57,785 bases of DNA from an uncultured Candidatus Sumerlaeota bacterium. GTDB lineage: Bacteria; CAYMEV01. Shown piece by piece: positions 9,660 through 55,243 of this stretch. Position numbers and translations under genes: made by a program. The notes under the pieces are model-generated. The model did not search any database, was not told the DNA's origin, and saw only the letters and a list, made by a program, of their open reading frames with translations. The first letter of the stretch is position 1. The number at the start of each line of letters is the position of its first letter. The stretch covers positions 1 through 57,785 of the forward strand of contig CAYMEV010000022.1 in assembly GCA_964389675.1 (NCBI GenBank), given 5' to 3'.

Positions 9660-12218
9660 TTGAAAAAGCTAATTATTATACTCTTTTTTGTGCTGAGTTT
9701 TCATTCACATGCTGAGCAGGCTGTTGAGTATAATATGTCCTTTGAGCTTGCAGAAAATGGAGTATTTGTTTTTTCTCTTGAGGGAACCGGCAAGGCTGTC
9801 CTGGAGACAGGATTGACAAAAATCCCCATTGTTAAGGGAAGCAGACATAAAAGAAGGTATGTTTTCAATATAACAGCAAAGAACGTAAAATTAAGCCTTT
9901 CTAAATCGCTGGTTCTTTCCGGCATGGATTACTATAAGGCTGACAGGATCCCCAGTGAAGGTTTTGAGCTGGGATCTGCGGAGAATATGGATACCGAAAA
10001 GGACCTTGTCATCAAGGATCCCTTGAAGAAAATAATGAATGAGATCCATTTTCTGAACTTCAGGGTGTATAATCTTGAAAAAGAAAGGAAACTGGCTCTA
10101 TATGTAAATAACATGTTCCACTCATATGTGCCTTCTACCGGGAGGAATAAGTGGTCAGGCAGGATTACGTCCAATATATATGCATATCTTGAAAAGAACC
10201 ATCCGGCTGATATTATAAGCTTTAAGATGATGGGTGATGGTAAGGGCACGAGCGCTGTTATGGTCTCTGATATTGAATTTTCCAGGGGGTATAAGATGCC
10301 CGATGACAGCGAGATTGGCTATATCCTGCCAAATAATATACAGAACCCCAACTTTGCAGTATTCAGCCTTAATGATTACAATCCTGATCTTTATCTATCC
10401 TTCCATCTTTATAATAATACCAGTGAGAACCCGGTTGAGATTGAATTCAACAATAATCCCGTTGAGGTGTTCAAGGGAAGGTCAAAGAAAGATGAATGGA
10501 GCAGTCTTATTTACCTGAAAATACCTGAATGGATGGTTATAAGGGGCAGTAATATAATAATGGTAAAAAACCTGTATAATATGGAAAACAACCTGAAAAA
10601 AGAATGGGGCATAAAGAAGCTTTACCAGTCAAATGAAATAGGCAAGGGTGCATACGGCAAATTCAGTTCGGAGTATAAAAAGCAGTGTTTTTATGACAGA
10701 CTGGTCTATCCCTTAAAAGAGACCGGTAATGATATTATTGCGAATTTTCGCCTCTATAATGTCTCAGGAAAGAATTCCGTAGATGTATTCCTGAATGAAA
10801 CGAAGATCAGAAGTTTTTCCGATATTACTGAAACCGGAGGCTGGTCTGATGACATTGAACTCTTAATCAGAGGAGAGGATAAAGGCAGGGCAGAAAGGGA
10901 AAATATGCTTGTCTTCAGGAGGAAAAAGGAGGGTTCCGACTGGGGAGTTGATTTTAGTCATGTTTTATACAGGTCTGAAATAGAGCCTATAAAGGTTAAC
11001 TACAGGCCGGAGGAAATACCCCTCATAATTGAAAAAAAGCCTGAAAAGAAAGAAAAAACAGACCCTATAATCGATGCTGTCTATATTGCCAATAAAGAAA
11101 TAGAGGCTGAGGTTGAAATAGAAGACAAACAGGAGCCTTCAACAGATCAGGAAATCATGGAAAATAATGAAGGGAGCCTTTTTACATTTGAAACCGTTCC
11201 GGATGAAGCTATGATATTCTGCGGGGGAAACCCTCACTATCCCGGCAGGTTCATAGGTTTCACGCCGTTTTCTCATAAGATAGATATACCGCCCCGAACA
11301 TATATCTATGTGCATATCCCCATGTATGGGAGCAATATATTTTTTCATAACCCTGTTTTTGAGTTTCCCATGTATAAGTATTATTTCAATATAGGCAAAA
11401 TCAGCCAGTTTACGGAAAATCCGATAGTTACAGATGTATTTATAAGTGTTCCTGTGGATTACAGCCTTGTTAACTCGGCTCCATTCATATGTGATTATGA
11501 TTCGGATGGATTTATGGACATTGCTGTGGGGACATCAATGGGGGATATAATTGTAATGAAGAAAGAAGAGGCCTTTGATTATACCGTTTTGCTGGATATT
11601 CTTCAGCTTGAAGGCTATACTTATATTGTCCCTTTTTTCCTGGATTATGACAATGATGGGGTCCAGGATCTCATTGCCGGAACAGAAGAAGGAGAGATCC
11701 TGCTGTTTTCCATGGATGAAAGCGGCAGCTACCTGTTCGTAAAATTTATAGCAGAAGAGCTTATGAAAAGTAATAAGCTTTCAGGAATAGCTCCATATAT
11801 TTTTGATCTTAATTCTGATCACAGAAAGGATATTATTTTTGGTACCAAGTATGGCGGGCTTTTTTACATGCTTAATGAAGGTACGGATGAAGATCCTGAG
11901 TATAAGAGCTTGAAAAGGCTTGAACTGCCTTTTGAAAATCCGGTAAATCTCGTTCCGGCTGTTTTTTTTAATTACAGGGACGGATTATACAGCGTGCTTG
12001 CAGGTACAAGGGACGGAAATTTATTAATGCTGCAGTCACCCAAGATTATTGACAATGAATTAAAATTTGATAATATATCCATATTAACATCTCAACAGAC
12101 AATGAATCTTGGTTTTGATCTTGTTCCCAGGGTTCTGGACTATGATAACAGCGGGTCACATGATATACTTATAGGCAACAGGGCAGGCGAAATCATATTA
12201 GTGAAATATGAAGAGTAA
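9660..12218 (+). CDS. Secreted multidomain protein: three ~115-aa repeats, PEGA-like segment, FG-GAP/VCBS-like repeats
   Basis: Signal peptide; DYDSDG, DYDNDG, DLNSDH and DYDNSG Ca-binding repeats in the C-terminal third. Confidence 0.7.
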   Translation: MKKLIIILFFVLSFHSHAEQAVEYNMSFELAENGVFVFSLEGTGKAVLETGLTKIPIVKGSRHKRRYVFNITAKNVKLSLSKSLVLSGMDYYKADRIPSEGFELGSAENMDTEKDLVIKDPLKKIMNEIHFLNFRVYNLEKERKLALYVNNMFHSYVPSTGRNKWSGRITSNIYAYLEKNHPADIISFKMMGDGKGTSAVMVSDIEFSRGYKMPDDSEIGYILPNNIQNPNFAVFSLNDYNPDLYLSFHLYNNTSENPVEIEFNNNPVEVFKGRSKKDEWSSLIYLKIPEWMVIRGSNIIMVKNLYNMENNLKKEWGIKKLYQSNEIGKGAYGKFSSEYKKQCFYDRLVYPLKETGNDIIANFRLYNVSGKNSVDVFLNETKIRSFSDITETGGWSDDIELLIRGEDKGRAERENMLVFRRKKEGSDWGVDFSHVLYRSEIEPIKVNYRPEEIPLIIEKKPEKKEKTDPIIDAVYIANKEIEAEVEIEDKQEPSTDQEIMENNEGSLFTFETVPDEAMIFCGGNPHYPGRFIGFTPFSHKIDIPPRTYIYVHIPMYGSNIFFHNPVFEFPMYKYYFNIGKISQFTENPIVTDVFISVPVDYSLVNSAPFICDYDSDGFMDIAVGTSMGDIIVMKKEEAFDYTVLLDILQLEGYTYIVPFFLDYDNDGVQDLIAGTEEGEILLFSMDESGSYLFVKFIAEELMKSNKLSGIAPYIFDLNSDHRKDIIFGTKYGGLFYMLNEGTDEDPEYKSLKRLELPFENPVNLVPAVFFNYRDGLYSVLAGTRDGNLLMLQSPKIIDNELKFDNISILTSQQTMNLGFDLVPRVLDYDNSGSHDILIGNRAGEIILVKYEE

Positions 12219-42975: not shown

Positions 42976-44159
42976 TGTTTAGACCCCCCTTTTAGTAAAC
43001 TTAACAGCAATGTTGAGACATGCAGTATTGGGATATCACTTTTGTACCGGTGCACACCATCGGCAAGCCTTAGCATGCACAACGGGCAGCTTGATATGAT
43101 CTGTGCGGGGTTATTAAACTTTTCAACAGCCGTCTGCAGTATAGATAGTGAAAGGCTGTTGTTTTTGACAAAGAAGCTGCCGCCTCCGCCACAGCAGGAA
43201 TCTACTGTACTGAACAATTCTCCGAAAATATCATCAAGGATATCCCGTGCTGAATTCACAGGGTGTTTACCGGTGAAATGACAAGGCTGATGGAATGCGG
43301 TCTCTTTTTTTTCTTCAGATTTGAAAAGGTGCTTAAAGCTTTTTAAAACAGCTGAGATATCAACCACCTTTTCTTCATCAAAACCATACCATTCTATCAG
43401 GGATGTCCTGCAGGTGGGACATGTTGTGATGATCTTCTTATGGGGCGTTTTTGAGAATATTTCAAGGTTCCTGCTTTTCACTTCTTCAGCCTTTTTATCA
43501 AAGCCGTTATAATATAGGGGAAACCCGCAGCAGGAAAGCCCTGCAGGTATTATAAATGGTATTTTGAGCATATTCAGCAGAGAGATGGTATCCCTCGTTA
43601 TTTTTGAGAGTATGAGATTACTCCCGCATCCGGGGAAATATAGATATTCAGGGAGTTTGCCAAGCTCGTTCTTTATCTCCTTTTTAAGATATGCAGGCCT
43701 GTTATAGTAGTTTGGGAATATTCTGGAGACAGGGGTTTTAATAAGCTTCATATAAAAGAAGCTGCTGTCGGAATATTCTCTTGTAAACAGGGCAAATAAT
43801 TCCTTTGGAAAGATCCTGCTCAATCTGGTAAGTATATCAACATTCATGAGTGCATTTGAGATAAGTCTGTCTGACAGGCTCTTTTTAATCTCCCTGGCCT
43901 TTATCATGGAAATCAGGTCAAGGTACTTGACATCTTTCTCGCAAACACCCCTGCATCTCAGGCATACAAGGCATTTGTCAAGGCTGTCTTTCATATCCTG
44001 GGCTATAAAAGAATCATCATTCAGCATATCGAAAAGAGCTACACGTCCCCTTGAGGAATATATCTCATCTCTCAGCTGTATGTATACAGGGCAGACAGAG
44101 AGGCACCGGCCGCATTTCACGCACTCTGATATCATGTCATTAATTATATTGTCTCTCAT
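42972..44159 (-). CDS. Fe-S binding oxidoreductase subunit (GlcF / CCG-domain family)
   Basis: Two CxxCxxCxxxC motifs and two CCG domains. Confidence 0.85.
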   Translation of the reverse strand: MRDNIINDMISECVKCGRCLSVCPVYIQLRDEIYSSRGRVALFDMLNDDSFIAQDMKDSLDKCLVCLRCRGVCEKDVKYLDLISMIKAREIKKSLSDRLISNALMNVDILTRLSRIFPKELFALFTREYSDSSFFYMKLIKTPVSRIFPNYYNRPAYLKKEIKNELGKLPEYLYFPGCGSNLILSKITRDTISLLNMLKIPFIIPAGLSCCGFPLYYNGFDKKAEEVKSRNLEIFSKTPHKKIITTCPTCRTSLIEWYGFDEEKVVDISAVLKSFKHLFKSEEKKETAFHQPCHFTGKHPVNSARDILDDIFGELFSTVDSCCGGGGSFFVKNNSLSLSILQTAVEKFNNPAQIISSCPLCMLRLADGVHRYKSDIPILHVSTLLLSLLKGGSKQ

Positions 44160-44518
44160 TGTTCCTTCCTTATCACAAAAGGCTTGGGAATATATTTTTT
44201 CCGTAATCTTTTTATTTTTGCAGGTTTGCTGAAAAGGTCGGCTGTAAGCCTGTTTTCTCTGTACCGCTGTATATAATCCCTTATAACCGGATTTATGAAA
44301 ATATTTTCCAGGTCAAACAGGGATAATGCTTCAATAAGTATGATAAATTTCTCAGTCTCTGTGAGCGTGCTGGCGATATAGAGCCTCTTTTCATCCTTTA
44401 GAATGCAGTAACCGTTGACATTCAAGCATTCTTTGAAAACCTCCACTTTGATTTTATCAAGAATCTCAAGGCAATAATCAATTAATCTGGGAAGTTCATA
44501 ATGTTTAGTTGTTACCAT
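44156..44518 (-). CDS. Hypothetical protein
   Basis: First gene of the minus-strand operon; overlaps the next start (ATGA). Confidence 0.65.
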   Translation of the reverse strand: MVTTKHYELPRLIDYCLEILDKIKVEVFKECLNVNGYCILKDEKRLYIASTLTETEKFIILIEALSLFDLENIFINPVIRDYIQRYRENRLTADLFSKPAKIKRLRKKYIPKPFVIRKEQ

Positions 44519-44609: not shown

Positions 44610-44639
44610 TTGACAATAATATAATTTGGGCTTTAATAT
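44610..44639 (+). promoter_or_regulatory. Candidate sigma70 promoter of the RiPP-like cassette (TTGACA followed by TTTAAT or TAATAT)
   Basis: Perfect -35 box at 44610-44615; the -10 box is ambiguous (16 or 18 nt spacer). Confidence 0.4.
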
Positions 44640-44656: not shown

Positions 44657-45484
44657 ATGAAAAATAAAGGCACAAACAGCATTTTCTTATCAATAGGAAA
44701 GGTGGCAGTCAGGATTAACGGCCTGAGCGACAGGTTGTACAATGACGCCAGTATCCGATATACCCATTTTATCCAGAAACATTGCCCTTCGGGTCAGACA
44801 GCTGCTGATATCAATATAACGCTCCTTAGAAGATTCATATCTGACAAGCCTCTGGATCCTGTTCTTTCTGAGGAGAATGGAATCATATCAATTAAGAGAT
44901 ATGATTTTGAAGGGAAATATGATATTTCAAATGGTGTCCTTGATATATCCATGTTTGAAAACGTCTATTCCCTTGATGCAGTGCTGAGGATCCTTTATTC
45001 GTACTATCTGGCTATGAACGGGGGATTTATGATACATTCTGCTGGAATAGTAATAGACGATGAAGCTTATGTGTTCTGCGGACAGACCCTTCATGGAAAA
45101 TCCCACATAATAAAAACCACCGGCGAGGGGCTGTTGCTTTCTGATGAAATAACAATTATCAGAAAGATTAAAGGGGATTTCCACGTGTTTGGAACACCGT
45201 TCTGGGGAGAGTTTGCAGTGGGGGGGGTTAATTCAGGTTTTCACCTTGAACAGCTTTATTTTTTGCATACCGGAGAGGAAAATTCTATACAGGATATCTC
45301 TAGCATTGAAGCAGTTCAGAAATTATTATCAACAATTCTTCTTTTTATTAATGACAAAAAAATAAATGATATTATATTTGATACAATCACGGAGATTGTG
45401 AACAGTGTTAATTGCTACAAGGTTATCTACAATCAAAAAGATGATATATGGAGGGAGATAAAATATGGCAGTAAGGCAAGATAA
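44657..45484 (+). CDS. HPr-kinase-related P-loop protein (ScmC / lasso-kinase-like)
   Basis: IHSAG, Walker A GQTLHGKS, LLSDE and GTPFWG. Confidence 0.75.
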   Translation: MKNKGTNSIFLSIGKVAVRINGLSDRLYNDASIRYTHFIQKHCPSGQTAADINITLLRRFISDKPLDPVLSEENGIISIKRYDFEGKYDISNGVLDISMFENVYSLDAVLRILYSYYLAMNGGFMIHSAGIVIDDEAYVFCGQTLHGKSHIIKTTGEGLLLSDEITIIRKIKGDFHVFGTPFWGEFAVGGVNSGFHLEQLYFLHTGEENSIQDISSIEAVQKLLSTILLFINDKKINDIIFDTITEIVNSVNCYKVIYNQKDDIWREIKYGSKAR

Positions 45485-45839
45485 AACTAATCTAGCAAAA
45501 AAAGACACACATCTTGATGCACTTTCAAAGAAAAAAGCCGATATTCTCACAAAGGTTGTAAAGAAGAACGAGGATATTGCATGGAGAGTGCTGGAAGGTG
45601 AAGTAATAATAATAACGCCCGAGGATTCAGTTCAGCATTACATGAACGAAGTAGGATCAACAATATGGGGATTTGCCGATGGAAAAAGGACTGTCCAGGA
45701 GATTATTGAACTCATGAAGGCAGAATACAAGGAAAATATTGAAAAGAAGCTTGTAACCCCCGAGGAGATCGAAACAGACGTTATCTCTTTCATAAGCGAG
45801 CTTTCCTCAGAAGAGAAGAAAATCGTTACCCTGGAATAA
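45465..45839 (+). CDS. PqqD-family RiPP recognition element
   Basis: WRVLEGEVII, MNEVGSTIWGFADGKRTVQEII...EY and ETDVISFISEL. Confidence 0.88.
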   Translation: MAVRQDKTNLAKKDTHLDALSKKKADILTKVVKKNEDIAWRVLEGEVIIITPEDSVQHYMNEVGSTIWGFADGKRTVQEIIELMKAEYKENIEKKLVTPEEIETDVISFISELSSEEKKIVTLE

Positions 45840-45844
45840 ATTCC

Positions 45845-46939
45845 ATGGGAAATGACCAATATATCACAACAGACTCAATAAATGAATATCTTGAATCAAA
45901 ATCCTGGGAGCATTTGATACCATTAAACGCCTCTTTTGAACTGACATACAGATGCAATGAAAGATGCATACACTGTTATGTTGAGTCCCCTTTTGATGAT
46001 AAAGAGCTGTCCACCCAGGAAGTTAAAAGGGTCCTTGATGAACTCGCGGAGCTTCAAACCCTGCAGATCACATTTACTGGCGGGGAAATATTTGTAAGGA
46101 AGGACATTAAGGAGATCCTCCAGTATGCCAGGAATTTGAAATACAATATCAACATAAGCACCAATGGTATACTCATTGACGAGAGGATGGCTGATTTCCT
46201 GAAAGAGAAAATAAAGCCATGGGAGATAGGAATCAGCCTGTACGGGTCCACACCTGCAATTCATGATGCTGTAACACAAGTTAAGGGTTCATTTGAAAAG
46301 ACAGTAAAAGCCATAAAGATACTTAGGGAAAGGAATATCAGGACAAAAGCCAAGATAGTTATCATGTCAATAAACTATGATGACTATAAGAATATAAAGA
46401 AACTCACTGAGGAACTGGGAGTAAAGCACCTTATTGATTTTAACATTACACCGAAGACAACCGGGGACTTATCTCCTCTTGACCTGAGGATAAGCGACGA
46501 AAGGATTCAGGAATTTATATTTAATGAGGCTATCGGGCTGGAGATATACACCATGGACAAGGAAAGGTATGAAAAAGAGACCAAACTTAAGCTTGACGGT
46601 TATCTGTGCAAAGCCGGCAACAATTTCATAAATATTACTCCCTATGGTGAAGTAACGCCCTGCATACAGTGGTATTATCCTGTAGGGAACATAAGGAATA
46701 ACAGCCTGCATGATATATGGTACAATTCCGAAAAGTTGAATTATATCAGAAAACTGAAAATAAGGGATATAGAAAAATGCAATAAATGCGAATACCTGGC
46801 ATACTGCAACAGATGTCCGGGTGTAGCACTCCTGATTGACGGAGACAGCTTTGGAATATCGACTCTTTCATGCCGATATGTTGATAATATTAAAGCAGTT
46901 ATTGAAAAGAAATATAAAAAAAACCTGATTCCGACCTAA
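45845..46939 (+). CDS. Radical SAM / SPASM domain peptide maturase
   Basis: CNERCIHC, TGGE, and a SPASM domain CKAG...GEVTPC...GNI...CNKC...CNRCPG...C (7 Cys). Confidence 0.92.
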   Translation: MGNDQYITTDSINEYLESKSWEHLIPLNASFELTYRCNERCIHCYVESPFDDKELSTQEVKRVLDELAELQTLQITFTGGEIFVRKDIKEILQYARNLKYNINISTNGILIDERMADFLKEKIKPWEIGISLYGSTPAIHDAVTQVKGSFEKTVKAIKILRERNIRTKAKIVIMSINYDDYKNIKKLTEELGVKHLIDFNITPKTTGDLSPLDLRISDERIQEFIFNEAIGLEIYTMDKERYEKETKLKLDGYLCKAGNNFINITPYGEVTPCIQWYYPVGNIRNNSLHDIWYNSEKLNYIRKLKIRDIEKCNKCEYLAYCNRCPGVALLIDGDSFGISTLSCRYVDNIKAVIEKKYKKNLIPT

Positions 46940-46948
46940 ATATTCCAT

Positions 46949-47539
46949 ATGAACAATAACAGAATCCCCCCTGCCTCTCTGGTAAAAGAGGCAATAAAAA
47001 AATCAGGAAGGTTTGAGATTACTGCATTGGGTTCCAGTATGACCCCTATCATATGGCACAGAAGCAGGGTCCTCCTTGACTGGGTTGAGCCTGAAAAGAT
47101 TAAAATTGGAGATATAATTGTCAAAGGCATAGACTATAAATATATAATACACAGGGTTATCAGAATATTGAAAAAACCGGATGAAGAGGGTAAAAATATA
47201 TTTATTTTTATTACAAAAGGAGATTTTCTTACACGGCCTGACCCATTCTATGATGCTGATGAATATCTTGGCAAGGTCTCCAGTATAAGCAATAAACTAA
47301 TAAGTTTCAATCCCAACACTGTATCGCAACCTTTAAGAAGGCTTTGTGTCTGGTTTTCGCGCATAGGTTCATTTTTTGACAGGTACTTTAGTTTTATTTA
47401 TAAATTAATTTACAAAATTAGAATTTTACAGATATTTTATAGAACAGTTTTCTCATTTCCCGTATTATTAATAAATACGGCAGTATTATTCTATTATTTC
47501 TTAAGGAGATGCACATGGAAAAGAAATCGGGAATTATAG
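46949..47539 (+). CDS. S24/S26-family peptidase (Ser-His, SipW-like)
   Basis: GSSMTP, GDII, IIHRV and TKGD; hydrophobic/basic C-terminal tail. Confidence 0.82.
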   Translation: MNNNRIPPASLVKEAIKKSGRFEITALGSSMTPIIWHRSRVLLDWVEPEKIKIGDIIVKGIDYKYIIHRVIRILKKPDEEGKNIFIFITKGDFLTRPDPFYDADEYLGKVSSISNKLISFNPNTVSQPLRRLCVWFSRIGSFFDRYFSFIYKLIYKIRILQIFYRTVFSFPVLLINTAVLFYYFLRRCTWKRNREL

Positions 47540-49680
47540 GCAGCATATTGAAGAGCAGTTTTGCTTTTGGAATTATAGTGGGTATTATTGAAGGTGTCAC
47601 AGTTCTGCTTCAGAGTTTAATATCCTCTCCTATGAGGGTAACAGGTGACACACTTGAGAGCATATTGAAGATTCTGTACATGGCGGTTATAAGCAATGTC
47701 TTATTCATTATTATAATGAACTTTACAGTCGGAATGATTTTATATCTTATACTCAGAAAACTTCTCAAGCAGTATGCCAATTATACATTTATCTTTGTAT
47801 CAGGATTTTTTATGGCATTCAATATCCTTTCATATGCCTTTACTACAAGTTATATAATCAATCAGATTTCCCATCCGCTCCCCTTATTCGTGCTTGCAAG
47901 GACAGCTTTTTATTCAGTACTTGTTTCAATCGGAGCAATTATCCTTTACAGATATATTGTAAGCAAATGGGGATGGGAGAAGGCTATAAGGGTTTTCATC
48001 TCGCTTGCTGCGCTTCTGCTTGCGACTATACCTTTTATCCTCCTTATAAACAGGATATATATACCATTTTCATTATCACTAAAAAGCCTTCTTGTGAATA
48101 TTGTCATTCTTATTGCCCTTTTGATATCCTATTTTCTAATGTCATGGATTTACCGGATATTATCAAAGAAATATAAAAAGACATTCATGATTGAGAATCC
48201 TTTAATACCGGCAGTTATGTTCCTGCTGCTGTTAAGCCCTTTTATATACAGCCTTATGGCAGGATCAGACCTGAACCTAAAACCTAAAACAGACCCTGAA
48301 AGGCCCAATGTTGTATTGATATCAGTAGACACTCTCAGGGCTGATGCACTTAAATGCTATGGCAACGAGAAGACAGATACAAATAATATAGACAGTGTTG
48401 CCGCTCAGGGCATAAGGTTCCAGAATGCATATTCACAGGCTCCATGGACCCTGACATCAATAGGGAGCTTCATGACAGGGCTTTATCCAACTGTAAACGG
48501 GCTTAACAAGCCTCTCTTAAGGCTTGATTCAAACAGGGAGACAATTGCAAAGGCGTTCAGGAATGCCGGTTATAATACCGTAGCAGTTGCTACAAATGGA
48601 TGGAACAAGCAAAATTTTGGAATGGACCTTGGTTTTGAGAACTATAATTATCAGGGTGATGCGATGTGGATATTATCATTCAATCATAGCCTGTGGAACA
48701 GGATGTTCATATTTATTTCAACAAAGATCTTTAAGAGCAATGTTATGTACAGTGCCTATAACCCTAATGAAGCCAAGGTTGTAACTGACATCTCCATTAA
48801 AAAACTGGAGGAGTATAAAGACAGCAATTTCTTCATGTGGATACACTACCTTGATCCCCATGATCCGTATACGCCCCCCAGGGAATATCAGAAAAAATTC
48901 TCAAAGGGATATAAGGGCCGATATATGACAAGTTCGGGACGGGTTAACGGATTCAGGACAGGGATAATGCTTGAGGAAAAAGATAAAGCACAGATAGAAA
49001 ACCTTTATCTTGCTGAGGTAGAATATACAGACCGGGAAATAGGGCGTATTATTGACACATTAGATAGGCTGAATCTTGGAGAAAACACAATTGTAGCCCT
49101 GATAGCAGACCATGGAGAAGAGTTCTGGGAGCACAATGGTGTTACCCATGGGCACTGCCTCCACTGGCATCAGCTTCATATACCCTTTATTCTCAGGTGG
49201 AAAGGCAATATTGAACCAAAAGTGATAGAGGACAGGGTAGCACTTCTTGACCTGAAACCCACACTCCTTTCGCTTTGCGGGATACAGGCCGGAGAGATCA
49301 TGCAGGGTTTTGATCTCAGCAGTGTCATTAGAAACGGGGACGAGGATCTGAAGTTAAAACTGAAGGAGAGGGATCTGTATGCTGAGGCATTGATATATTT
49401 TGAGGAGCAGAAGAGCGTATATGATGATAATTATAAATATGTATATTCTGAAGTGACACATAAGGAAGAGCTTTATGACCTGAAAAATGACCCTCTGGAA
49501 AAAATGAACATAATTGCTTCGGAAGAGGAACTGGCCCAGAAATACAGGGATTCAGTAGGAGAATGGCGTACAGTAAGTGAAAACATTGCCGGTACCCTTC
49601 CCAAAGAGGATGCTGATTCAACATCCCACCTGGATGAGGAGACTCTTCAGCAGCTCAGGGCATTGGGCTATATAAATTAG
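47515..49680 (+). CDS. Membrane-anchored sulfatase-like hydrolase/transferase (alkaline phosphatase superfamily)
   Basis: About 7 N-terminal TM helices, then PNVVLISVDTLRAD, APWTLTS, DPHDPY, ADHGE and a C-terminal LRALGY; AAGGAG SD before ATG 47515. Confidence 0.88.
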   Translation: MEKKSGIIGSILKSSFAFGIIVGIIEGVTVLLQSLISSPMRVTGDTLESILKILYMAVISNVLFIIIMNFTVGMILYLILRKLLKQYANYTFIFVSGFFMAFNILSYAFTTSYIINQISHPLPLFVLARTAFYSVLVSIGAIILYRYIVSKWGWEKAIRVFISLAALLLATIPFILLINRIYIPFSLSLKSLLVNIVILIALLISYFLMSWIYRILSKKYKKTFMIENPLIPAVMFLLLLSPFIYSLMAGSDLNLKPKTDPERPNVVLISVDTLRADALKCYGNEKTDTNNIDSVAAQGIRFQNAYSQAPWTLTSIGSFMTGLYPTVNGLNKPLLRLDSNRETIAKAFRNAGYNTVAVATNGWNKQNFGMDLGFENYNYQGDAMWILSFNHSLWNRMFIFISTKIFKSNVMYSAYNPNEAKVVTDISIKKLEEYKDSNFFMWIHYLDPHDPYTPPREYQKKFSKGYKGRYMTSSGRVNGFRTGIMLEEKDKAQIENLYLAEVEYTDREIGRIIDTLDRLNLGENTIVALIADHGEEFWEHNGVTHGHCLHWHQLHIPFILRWKGNIEPKVIEDRVALLDLKPTLLSLCGIQAGEIMQGFDLSSVIRNGDEDLKLKLKERDLYAEALIYFEEQKSVYDDNYKYVYSEVTHKEELYDLKNDPLEKMNIIASEEELAQKYRDSVGEWRTVSENIAGTLPKEDADSTSHLDEETLQQLRALGYIN

Positions 49681-53656: not shown

Positions 53657-54088
53657 ATGGGAATTACAGAGAATTTAATGATCGTACTGAATACATTAGT
53701 AGTATTTGCTTTTTTGTCCTGGGTTTTTAAGGTTATTCTGGAATGGCGAAAACTAAAGCATAAAAACCAGCTGCACAACAAATTGGTAGACAAATACAGC
53801 AATGTGGAGGAACTGAACGAATTTCTTAAATCAGAGAATGGGATCAACTTTTTTAAGTATCTGTCAGTAGAGGGTGTAGTACCGAAAGAAAGATTGATTA
53901 TATCTATATCAAGGGGAATCATCGCCGGATTTTTAGGTTTTGCCTTTTTAATTCTGGGCCAGATCTTCACAGAAGAAACCGAGTTTTTTGTTGCTTTTGG
54001 CATTCTTATAATTGCATTGGGGCTTGGATTCCTGGTATCTGCTTTTGTATCAGTTAAGCTGAGCAAAAAATGGGGTATCATTGACTGA
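53657..54088 (+). CDS. Membrane protein (3 TM) heading the ECF operon
   Basis: GGAGG SD; hydrophobic segments; overlaps the sigma gene. Confidence 0.7.
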   Translation: MGITENLMIVLNTLVVFAFLSWVFKVILEWRKLKHKNQLHNKLVDKYSNVEELNEFLKSENGINFFKYLSVEGVVPKERLIISISRGIIAGFLGFAFLILGQIFTEETEFFVAFGILIIALGLGFLVSAFVSVKLSKKWGIID

Positions 54089-54722
54089 ATCGGTAAGAAA
54101 GGGAGTGGTTTCATCGGGCGTAAAAGCCGGAAAGTCAAAAAAAAAGCCAGGGGAAGGATTTTATATAGAAAATCCTTCCCATTTAGGTACAATCGAAAAG
54201 ATGGATATCATTCCCGACGAACCTGAAGATGAAGAGAAGAGGTTTGAATGTTTTTATGAGACACATTCAAAACGATTCTGGTATTTTATCTTAAAAATCT
54301 GTGGAGATGAATCAATGGCTGATGATATTTTTCAGGAATCCTATTTCAGGTTCTTAAAAGCAGATCCCCGTGGGATGGCTGATTATCAGCTAAAAGCTTA
54401 TCTGTATAAAATTGCAGTCAGGCTGATTATCGATCATAGAAGAAAGATCCATCTGGAGGAAAAATCGATTTCCAGCCTTAAGGAAAATGAGGGCAAAAAG
54501 CCTGATATTTTGCTCTCCATGGATATGGACAATCTGTTTAAGCATTTGAAACCGGAAGACCGGACGCTGCTATGGCTGGCATATATTGAGGGGTATTCCC
54601 ATCGGGAGATTGCTGATATTATCGGGAAAGGAGAGAAGACTATCAAGGTAAATCTGTACAGGGTGAGGAGAAAATTTGCCGGGATATTGAAAGCAGGAGG
54701 ATACGATGGAGATTTATTATGA
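54081..54722 (+). CDS. ECF RNA polymerase sigma factor
   Basis: ADDIFQESY, YLYKIA, EGYSHREIA and TIKVNLYR. The start may instead be ATG 54201. Confidence 0.92.
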   Translation: MTESVRKGVVSSGVKAGKSKKKPGEGFYIENPSHLGTIEKMDIIPDEPEDEEKRFECFYETHSKRFWYFILKICGDESMADDIFQESYFRFLKADPRGMADYQLKAYLYKIAVRLIIDHRRKIHLEEKSISSLKENEGKKPDILLSMDMDNLFKHLKPEDRTLLWLAYIEGYSHREIADIIGKGEKTIKVNLYRVRRKFAGILKAGGYDGDLL

Positions 54723-55243
54723 GAATATTTAACAAAAAATGCGATCACGAAGCGGATATTATAAAAGCATATTTTGAAAATGATCTAACCGATGCACAGA
54801 AAGCACATATAAGAAGATGCAGGAACTGTCAGGATGCTGTTGCAGTTTATAGCTGGATGAAAAAATATGATGATCTTAATGAGGGATTTTCAAAAGGGGG
54901 AAAAATTCTACCTTCTGCAGGAGATGTATTGATAAGAGCCAGAAACAGGCAGGCATCAAAAATAGAAAAGATAAATAAAATGATGAAATTTCTTAAATTA
55001 GCACAGGGTGCCGTTATATTTTGCTTTGTATCAGGGGCGATTTTCTTGATTGCCGGAAAAGCAGATCAGATAAAATCCCTTGTCTGTAATGCTATATTGG
55101 AGTGCTCTCCTCTAAGCAATTTATCATTGTTTTTCAGTGCTCTGACAAAATCACTGCCATTTCTTTCAATTCCTTTTGCATTGATTTTCTTTCTGTTTCT
55201 GAATTATTCTATCTTTTCATTCTTCTATCCGGAAAAGACCTGA
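54719..55243 (+). CDS. Zinc-binding anti-sigma factor (ZAS) with TM helices
   Basis: HIRRCRNC (HxxxCxxC); ATGA overlap with the sigma gene. Confidence 0.8.
   Translation: MRIFNKKCDHEADIIKAYFENDLTDAQKAHIRRCRNCQDAVAVYSWMKKYDDLNEGFSKGGKILPSAGDVLIRARNRQASKIEKINKMMKFLKLAQGAVIFCFVSGAIFLIAGKADQIKSLVCNAILECSPLSNLSLFFSALTKSLPFLSIPFALIFFLFLNYSIFSFFYPEKT

Follow-up and report, generated by a model that had tools for sequence, protein, structure and literature searches.

We analyzed a 57,785-nt stretch of DNA (the window; contig CAYMEV010000022.1 of assembly GCA_964389675.1, from an uncultured Candidatus Sumerlaeota bacterium) in which five genes on one strand had been proposed, in a reading of the sequence only, to form an undescribed system for maturing a ribosomally made, post-translationally modified peptide (RiPP). 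The source genome is called G000 here, the window contig C22, and a same-genus relative G001; among the set of 40 taxonomic relatives, only G001 shares a rank below domain with the host. Coordinates of the open reading frames (ORFs) and domain matches confirmed the five genes, their spacing and their motifs. The features of the locus are:

44610..44639, + strand: candidate sigma-70-type promoter (TTGACA-18-TAATAT), a consensus match only
44657..45484, + strand: ORF1, ScmC-family (HprK/PEPCK-fold) peptide kinase, 275 aa, assigned by PF27840 and a fold model
45465..45839, + strand: ORF2, stand-alone RiPP recognition element (RRE; PqqD family), 124 aa, PqqD PF05402 at E 1e-11
45845..46939, + strand: ORF3, radical S-adenosylmethionine (rSAM)/SPASM maturase, 364 aa, Radical_SAM and SPASM matches
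46949..47539, + strand: ORF4, leader peptidase resembling signal peptidase I (SpI; family S26), 196 aa, TIGR02228 48.8 bits, Ser30-His68-Asp92
47509..49680, + strand: ORF5, sulfatase-fold protein with seven transmembrane (TM) segments, 723 aa, Pfam Sulfatase E 6e-50, probably not in the system

The gaps from ORF1 to ORF5 are -20, +5, +9 and -31 nt, and ORF5 is followed by suhB (+14 nt) and then polA (-8 nt). This layout matches the spacing given in the sequence-only reading. The promoter itself carries no statistical weight: a scan for the TTGACA/TAATAT consensus gave 45 matches versus 32 +/- 6 expected, and the element is therefore a candidate only.

The enzyme set and its candidate precursor

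An alignment search of species genomes with the kinase yielded 91 relatives (a search of viral contigs yielded none), and 80 loci were kept with neighborhoods of up to 10 kb. An RRE was present in 77 of the 80 loci, an rSAM enzyme in 73 and an S26 peptidase in 58, with a nucleotidyltransferase (NTase) in 23 (32 by clustering). The ORF5-type sulfatase was found in a single locus, L001, which is part of G001. Because these loci are biased toward Acidobacteria types, we retested co-occurrence from the rSAM side. A profile scan (E <= 1e-75) detected the rSAM family in 52 of 401 sampled genomes, G000 and G001 included; the best 30 of the 52, with G000 and G001 left out, gave 28 loci. A partner lay within 1.5 kb in 26 of these (RRE in 25, kinase in 19, S26 in 11, precursor in 10 and NTase in 5). 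Judged by these neighborhoods, the kinase, RRE, rSAM/SPASM and S26 genes are a real and widespread set, encoding putative enzymes of small-peptide modification. The idea of an RRE-dependent peptide-maturation cassette is thus borne out for four of the five genes proposed, the sulfatase falling away. Where the sequence-only reading had asked whether these genes might fail to co-occur and the rSAM group with non-peptide enzymes, we found the four genes together in many genomes, and the rSAM reached the cut-off of none of the models listed, whether for heme, for cofactors or for anything else.

Two further observations concern neighbors of this set. A CBM96 and beta-propeller protein (~770 aa; L037:12127-14430 and homologs) occurs in 27 of the 80 loci, typically between precursor and S26, and by eye the distant precursors at L100-L103 and L106 seem to adjoin a similar gene. 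At L172:2-253, what looks by eye like the end of a lasso-B2-like transglutaminase gene is followed by RRE, kinase, rSAM, peptide and NTase genes, possibly in place of S26.

The candidate substrate is encoded on a different contig of G000, C2, in the following module:

C2:141686-141901, + strand: precursor peptide gene, 71 aa, the sole strong precursor-family match in the genome
C2:141971-142798, - strand: second ScmC kinase, canonical P-loop, convergent to the precursor
C2:142900-144189, + strand: NTP_transf_5 nucleotidyltransferase, PF14907 at C2:143020-143820

Used as a query, the 71-aa ORF retrieves a precursor family; 59 of the 80 kinase loci have a member, usually right after the rSAM gene, and within G000 the ORF is the only strong match to that family (E 1.5e-13, the next 0.15). 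The two loci complement each other: the window holds the genome's only discrete RRE and only S26 of the family, and C2 the only precursor and the only NTP_transf_5 over the cut-off. The same split is repeated in G001, where the peptide is 82% identical (dN/dS 0.11) and the four enzymes 65-77% identical. A ribosome-binding site (AAAGGAGG) and a 14-pair terminator hairpin flank the precursor gene, both kept in G001, as are two TTGACA boxes 5' of it; a promoter scan upstream called none, such scans being uninformative here. A 274-nt RNA-library contig from one marine-sediment run is identical (0 differences) to L081:7652-7925, which covers the peptide gene and short flanks. The kinase and NTase genes had no RNA cover in that run, which we did not use as evidence. 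None of six precursors matched NCBIfam and neither of two matched Pfam. Together, the observed gene content, co-occurrence, one-of-each complementarity, selection on the peptide and RNA-library contig make it likely that a RiPP pathway is divided here between two loci, the window holding its enzyme half and C2 its substrate half.

Separation of precursor and enzymes is seen elsewhere. Of 21 genomes without a precursor at the kinase locus, nine were tested and seven encode one at another site. A metagenome scan found 38 loci with related precursors; at one (L199) kinase, RRE, rSAM and S26 genes stand in window order followed by three long-core precursors, and a third member of the lineage (L189) again shows a precursor with a convergent kinase. 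The sequence-only reading had expected a substrate bound by the RRE; it missed the specific gene on C2, and it left out the NTase, which belongs to the system. Among 18 genomes with precursor matches, one match (L127) was rejected as lying within a Clp-type gene. Ten precursor matches with Tyr-rich, three-Cys cores occur in G128 (L130, L134-L139), and L210 has six in tandem. Upstream of the C2 precursor lies an rSAM protein with a PDZ-like segment (L081:5469-7166; G000 C2:139468-141165), found in none of the 80 kinase loci.

Precursor anatomy and a proposed pathway

The precursor set comprised 83 distinct sequences, after two matches without the motif were dropped, and was thinned to 32 with less than 55% core identity. 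Ser is the last residue in 81 of the 83, all have 2-4 core Cys (at least two being partly built into the selection), and 41 have a core W/F/Y. In the thinned set a C-terminal Ser is found in 30 of 32, Cys at core +5 in 29 and Lys at +7 in 17; core position 3 is Leu in 24, as in the C2 peptide, and Ser in none. The last Cys lies 7 residues before the end in 15 of these and 5 residues before it in 8. Short cores occur too, such as the 22-residue one of the Acidobacteria locus L002. The metagenome loci gave 47 complete long-core ORFs, and a terminal Ser is found in 46 of them; their last Cys stands 8 residues from the end in 33, 7 in seven and 13 in six. An odd spacing of the last Cys from the end failed as a rule, spacing 8 being the commonest in this set (33/47). 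The G000 peptide has Cys22, Cys64 and, as its last residue, Ser71, and its leader carries YxxPx[VI] and FET. The product is likely a Cys-cross-linked peptide phosphorylated on its last Ser, a chemistry that we infer.

In the proposed pathway the RRE would very likely bind the YxxPxI leader first, as modeled here and as shown for LppB. Modeled as a complex, S26, RRE and leader together scored 0.70 (best control, 0.44); among solved complexes 116 of 157 reached that mark, but among mismatched pairs 2 of 215. Agreement between runs covered at least 68% of contacts and partner pLDDT was at least 53. In the model, the leader meets the RRE through Tyr4, Pro7 and Ile9, and the part of S26 that touches the peptide, residues 23-31, includes Ser30.

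A ScmC kinase would then probably phosphorylate the C-terminal Ser, to judge from its conservation and from paeninodin and pseudomycoidin. The more likely enzyme for this step would be the C2 kinase, and the one in the window may be an additional or altered kinase. The window kinase has His127, the P-loop GQTLHGKS and SDE, falls in the precomputed Pfam family PF27840 (named ScmC), and its structure model (pLDDT 90.4) matches the PEPCK/HPrK fold; a PDB sequence search with the kinase profile gave weak P-loop matches only. It keeps His127, Gly142, Lys148, Ser149 and Asp163 and departs from the family at Thr144, Leu145 and His150, where 78-80 of 82 relatives show conservation; the same deviant loop recurs in four close homologs. 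We considered and rejected the idea that this kinase is dead: the catalytic residues are kept, dN/dS is 0.08, and BsfK G166A, altered at the equivalent P-loop Gly, is still active according to PMC10368454. Three further paralogs occur in G000, on C2, C3 and C13; in a kinase tree, support (0.25-0.74) is too low to tell whether recent duplication gave rise to the C22, C2 and C3 copies. The C2 and C3 copies have canonical P-loops. The C3 paralog (C3:119692-120498; L082) lies downstream of signaling-type genes. The C13 paralog (C13:87440-88255; L083) has lost the Walker A motif (P-loop), is 80% identical in G001, and by these features is a conserved pseudokinase. Neither has an RRE or precursor nearby. 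In G332 and G179 (L145, L146) a deviant-P-loop ScmC likewise stands beside a canonical one, with two rSAM copies and 2-3 dispersed precursors, a parallel to G000.

The rSAM/SPASM enzyme would next cross-link the core, a step that on balance we slightly favor. The link would involve one of the anchored Cys or both (at core +5 and at 7 residues from the end), and thioethers that close a variable loop rich in Gly/Ser/Thr are its most likely form. Its SPASM domain has seven Cys (255, 273, 312, 315, 321, 324 and 343), kept in 50-54 of 54 relatives. The structure model (pLDDT 92.5) is nearest to SkfB, SuiB, CteB-type, PqqE and anSME structures at 17-23% identity. After G001, the rSAMs of L199 and L212 are the best matches (328 and 322 bits, the next 278), and a FastTree phylogeny places the window enzyme in a clade (support 0.978) otherwise made up of rSAMs whose loci or genomes carry long-core precursors.

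An NTase may then add a further group, for example a hexose, onto the phosphoserine, a tentative step drawn by analogy with PsmN. Finally, RRE-guided cleavage by the SpI-like peptidase after Phe-Glu-Thr would quite likely release a 54-residue core, by analogy with LppS. The S26 protein scores 48.8 bits on the archaeal-type signal peptidase I model TIGR02228 (cut-off 51.85), and Ser30, His68 and Asp92 are each conserved in 60 of 60 relatives. It has no N-terminal TM anchor and one C-terminal hydrophobic segment (167-185), and on the best reading it is an LppS-like leader peptidase facing the cytoplasm. The earlier assignment of a Ser-His peptidase stands; a cytoplasmic orientation was not part of it.

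Weighing the interpretation and its alternatives

Several points weigh against the split-pathway interpretation. To judge by record titles, some two in three of the 80 kinase loci are of related Acidobacteria types, so that kinase-side counts overstate independence. Short C-termini fall partly within the model by which precursors were collected; among 12 peptides chosen by eye from outside the set, only 8 end in Ser. RNA support is a single contig from one run, carrying neither strand nor level, and DNA carry-over could explain it. No precursor was found in two of the nine genomes tested, and no exporter among the conserved neighbors of the 80 loci. With the genome at 93.8% completeness, it may lack some other substrate. 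Because solved RRE-leader complexes exist (9x8z, 9x90 and 5v1u), the complex model may have passed through likeness to them, and the three-chain job with its own alignments differs from the calibration set. The rSAM has no close characterized relative at 17-23% identity, and 19 of 54 related rSAMs have an eighth Cys, at 262, so that not all of them leave an auxiliary-cluster site open, a point that counts against the cross-linking step.

The same eighth Cys favors an alternative that keeps cassette and substrate and forms no thioether. Here the rSAM would epimerize, make a C-C or Lys-based link, or oxidize or decarboxylate the C-terminal (phospho)Ser, the two Cys serving as a disulfide or metal site; we give this a real, if lesser, chance. 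The top NCBIfam scores of the rSAM are to AhbD, ScmE, NirJ2 and mycofactocin MftC, and AhbD and MftC are decarboxylases. None of the models listed reaches its cut-off, however, these four falling far short. Lys at core +7 in about half of the thinned precursors would suit a Lys-based link, whereas the presence of at least two core Cys in all 83 (partly by selection), two of them positionally anchored, speaks against this alternative. An aromatic cross-link cannot be the family rule since W/F/Y are present in only about half of the cores.

A more speculative proposal, which we consider improbable, is that these peptides are a new class of RiPP with a variable-loop scaffold, in which a loop of ~5-60 residues lies between a Cys fixed near the leader and a tail of fixed form, Cys-x(4-7)-Ser. 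The rSAM would act on the C-terminal phosphoserine made by the kinase (for example through a Cys-to-terminal-residue link or decarboxylation), and in this lineage two ScmC kinases would share the labor, one with an altered P-loop in the enzyme operon and a canonical one next to the separately transcribed precursor. We found no report of an rSAM enzyme acting on a C-terminal phosphoserine in the literature searched.

It is unlikely that the window enzymes, while being RiPP machinery, serve a substrate other than the C2 peptide, be it a protein or something absent from the assembly. The C2 peptide would then depend on the kinase and NTase of its own locus, or on an RRE-fused rSAM on C7. The incomplete assembly and the kinase on C2 favor this, as does a second rSAM/SPASM with a weak PqqD-like N-terminus at C7:72786-74342. 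The C7 enzyme, however, scores 1.8e-44 on the family model versus 1.2e-131 for the window rSAM and falls outside the family clade, the only discrete RRE and family S26 are in the window, and L199 has the same enzymes in cis with the long-core precursor type. The C7 protein (L187:4787-6343) also has an N-terminal Gln-Pro-Ala-Thr repeat and no evident precursor nearby.

Very unlikely, in our view, is a five-gene system with extracellular decoration of the product by the sulfatase-fold membrane enzyme, giving a surface molecule. ORF5 overlaps the S26 gene by 31 nt, an overlap kept in G001; a second sulfatase-fold gene lies 230 nt beyond the C2 NTase; one of the 38 metagenome precursor loci has such a gene 4.5 kb away; and LPP clusters are located in capsule loci, according to PMC13381572. 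Against this, ORF5 was matched in only one of the 80 kinase loci and by its sulfatase profile in no other fetched locus except those of G001, G000 holds 12 further matches to it, and it runs on into suhB in both genomes. Since it is found only in the same-genus relative, ORF5 is a probable passenger, most likely a co-directional neighbor rather than a system member. This supports the caution in the sequence-only reading that the sulfatase may be just a neighbor; for its suggestion of extracellular decoration and a surface product we found nothing in support. The gene beyond the NTase (L081:10422-12779; G000 C2:144421-146778) encodes TPR and sulfatase-fold parts. A sulfatase-fold gene thus adjoins both halves of the system, which may be chance given the 12 paralogous matches.

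Finally, the rSAM is most improbably a heme or cofactor enzyme (AhbC/D, NirJ, PqqE) or an anaerobic maturase of the sulfatase two genes away: although AhbD is its best NCBIfam match (E 4.5e-43), it scores only 148 bits against a cut-off of 500 there, 114 against 381 for PqqE, 129 against 515 for NirJ and 69.4 against 349.45 for anSME, an RRE lies beside it in 25 of the 28 rSAM-chosen loci, and ORF5, with seven predicted TM segments, has a Thr motif in place of the catalytic CxPxR of formylglycine sulfatases, the single [CS]xPxR match being in its N-terminal TM region.

Elsewhere in the window, a 120-aa ORF divergent from the cassette (44156-44518, - strand) has no Pfam or NCBIfam match. A DUF6249-like membrane protein (53657-55243, + strand; under cut-off) is followed by genes labeled by eye as ECF sigma factor-like and anti-sigma-like, and an 852-aa secreted-looking protein with C-terminal FG-GAP repeats (9660-12218, + strand) lies immediately downstream of clpB.

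Relation to known systems and implications

The closest known system is that of the linear polyphosphorylated peptides (LPP; lppA-K-B-S-D-N, Paenibacillus alginolyticus; Popov et al. 2026), for which PMC13381572 describes an SpI, an RRE, a kinase of the HprK-like type, an NTP transferase plus an exporter resembling MsbA, a leader YxxPxVLxHQxIxFETxxS cut after Thr-1, and phosphorylation of Ser3. Shared with it are the discrete RRE and HprK-like kinase, an archaeal-type SpI (catalytic S29/H68/D93 in LppS and S30/H68/D92 here, compared by position), and an NTP transferase, which here is the PF14907 protein beside the C2 precursor and not in the window. The leader here is similar, with YxxPx[VI] and FET, but its spacer is two residues shorter, with Tyr at -14 rather than -16 and no HQ. 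The system described here adds an rSAM/SPASM enzyme and a core with 2-4 Cys. In LPP Ser3 is phosphorylated, but here core position 3 is Ser in 0 of 32 and the C-terminal Ser is near-invariant. No MsbA-like exporter lies in the window cassette, the C2 module or the conserved neighbors of the 80 loci. The system also occurs in many lineages outside Bacillota and is split over two loci. Membership in LPP therefore fails, there being no Ser3 and no exporter. In PMC13381572, 'radical SAM' is nowhere in the main text and 'Radical_SAM' appears once, as a supplement column head; for the HprK-like kinase, the SSN-1 loci of that paper have a listed TIGR04249 sum of 67. The system is an rSAM-containing sister of LPP, split here over two contigs, and most of its parts have characterized counterparts. 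Because the core of kinase, RRE, SpI and NTase was characterized in 2026 as LPP, the claim of an undescribed system narrows to the rSAM-containing form, on which we found no literature in a search that covered neither subscription journals nor bioRxiv supplements.

SynChlorMet (TIGR04248-TIGR04252; PF27840), likewise uncharacterized, also combines a ScmC-family kinase, a PqqD-like protein and an rSAM/SPASM enzyme; presumably it is defined by two rSAM enzymes and a ScmA precursor. The cassette here has one rSAM rather than a ScmE/ScmF pair, and its kinase falls in the Pfam ScmC family, but all the SynChlorMet models score far below cut-off (ScmC 31.9 bits against 125, ScmD 26.8 against 100, ScmE 141.7 against 400, ScmF 83 against 400). 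The ScmA model TIGR04252 had no match in G000 at E <= 1 and did not match the precursors.

Kinase-tailored lasso peptides (paeninodin, pseudomycoidin and Bsf) share a YxxP leader, a discrete RRE, a kinase of HprK-like type with H-G-GKS-DD/DE, and an NTP transferase. Earlier lasso peptide phosphorylations were at the C-terminal Ser (PMC10368454, which also gives the kinase motif), and PsmK phosphorylates the C-terminal Ser, with hexoses added in a PsmN-dependent manner (PMC6993621). The system here differs in having rSAM and SpI. The earlier statement that this is not a lasso, thiazole/oxazole-modified microcin (TOMM) or PQQ locus holds for the cassette: YcaO, lasso cyclase and pqqB/C, looked for at that scale, are absent from it, a macrolactam cyclase is absent from both loci, and the lasso B2 peptidase (PF13471) had no match in G000. 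Sactipeptide and ranthipeptide enzymes (SkfB, CteB-type 5why/5wgg, PapB) share the rSAM/SPASM fold, a Cys-bearing core and RRE dependence, but the enzyme here is at most 23% identical, under all cut-offs, and works beside a separate RRE with kinase, SpI and NTase partners. PapB can link Cys to the C-terminal residue of non-natural substrates, according to PMC12373016; PMC13692751 concerns a different system.

The rSAM family is present in about one in eight of the sampled genomes, yet no product has been described in searchable papers. With precursors often encoded far from their enzymes, neighborhood-based mining misses such systems. A named substrate, a likely cut site and a likely phosphorylated residue make the pathway testable with six or seven synthetic genes. 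The pathway would join radical SAM chemistry with the SpI-type leader peptidases of RiPPs, of which the first description dates from 2026.

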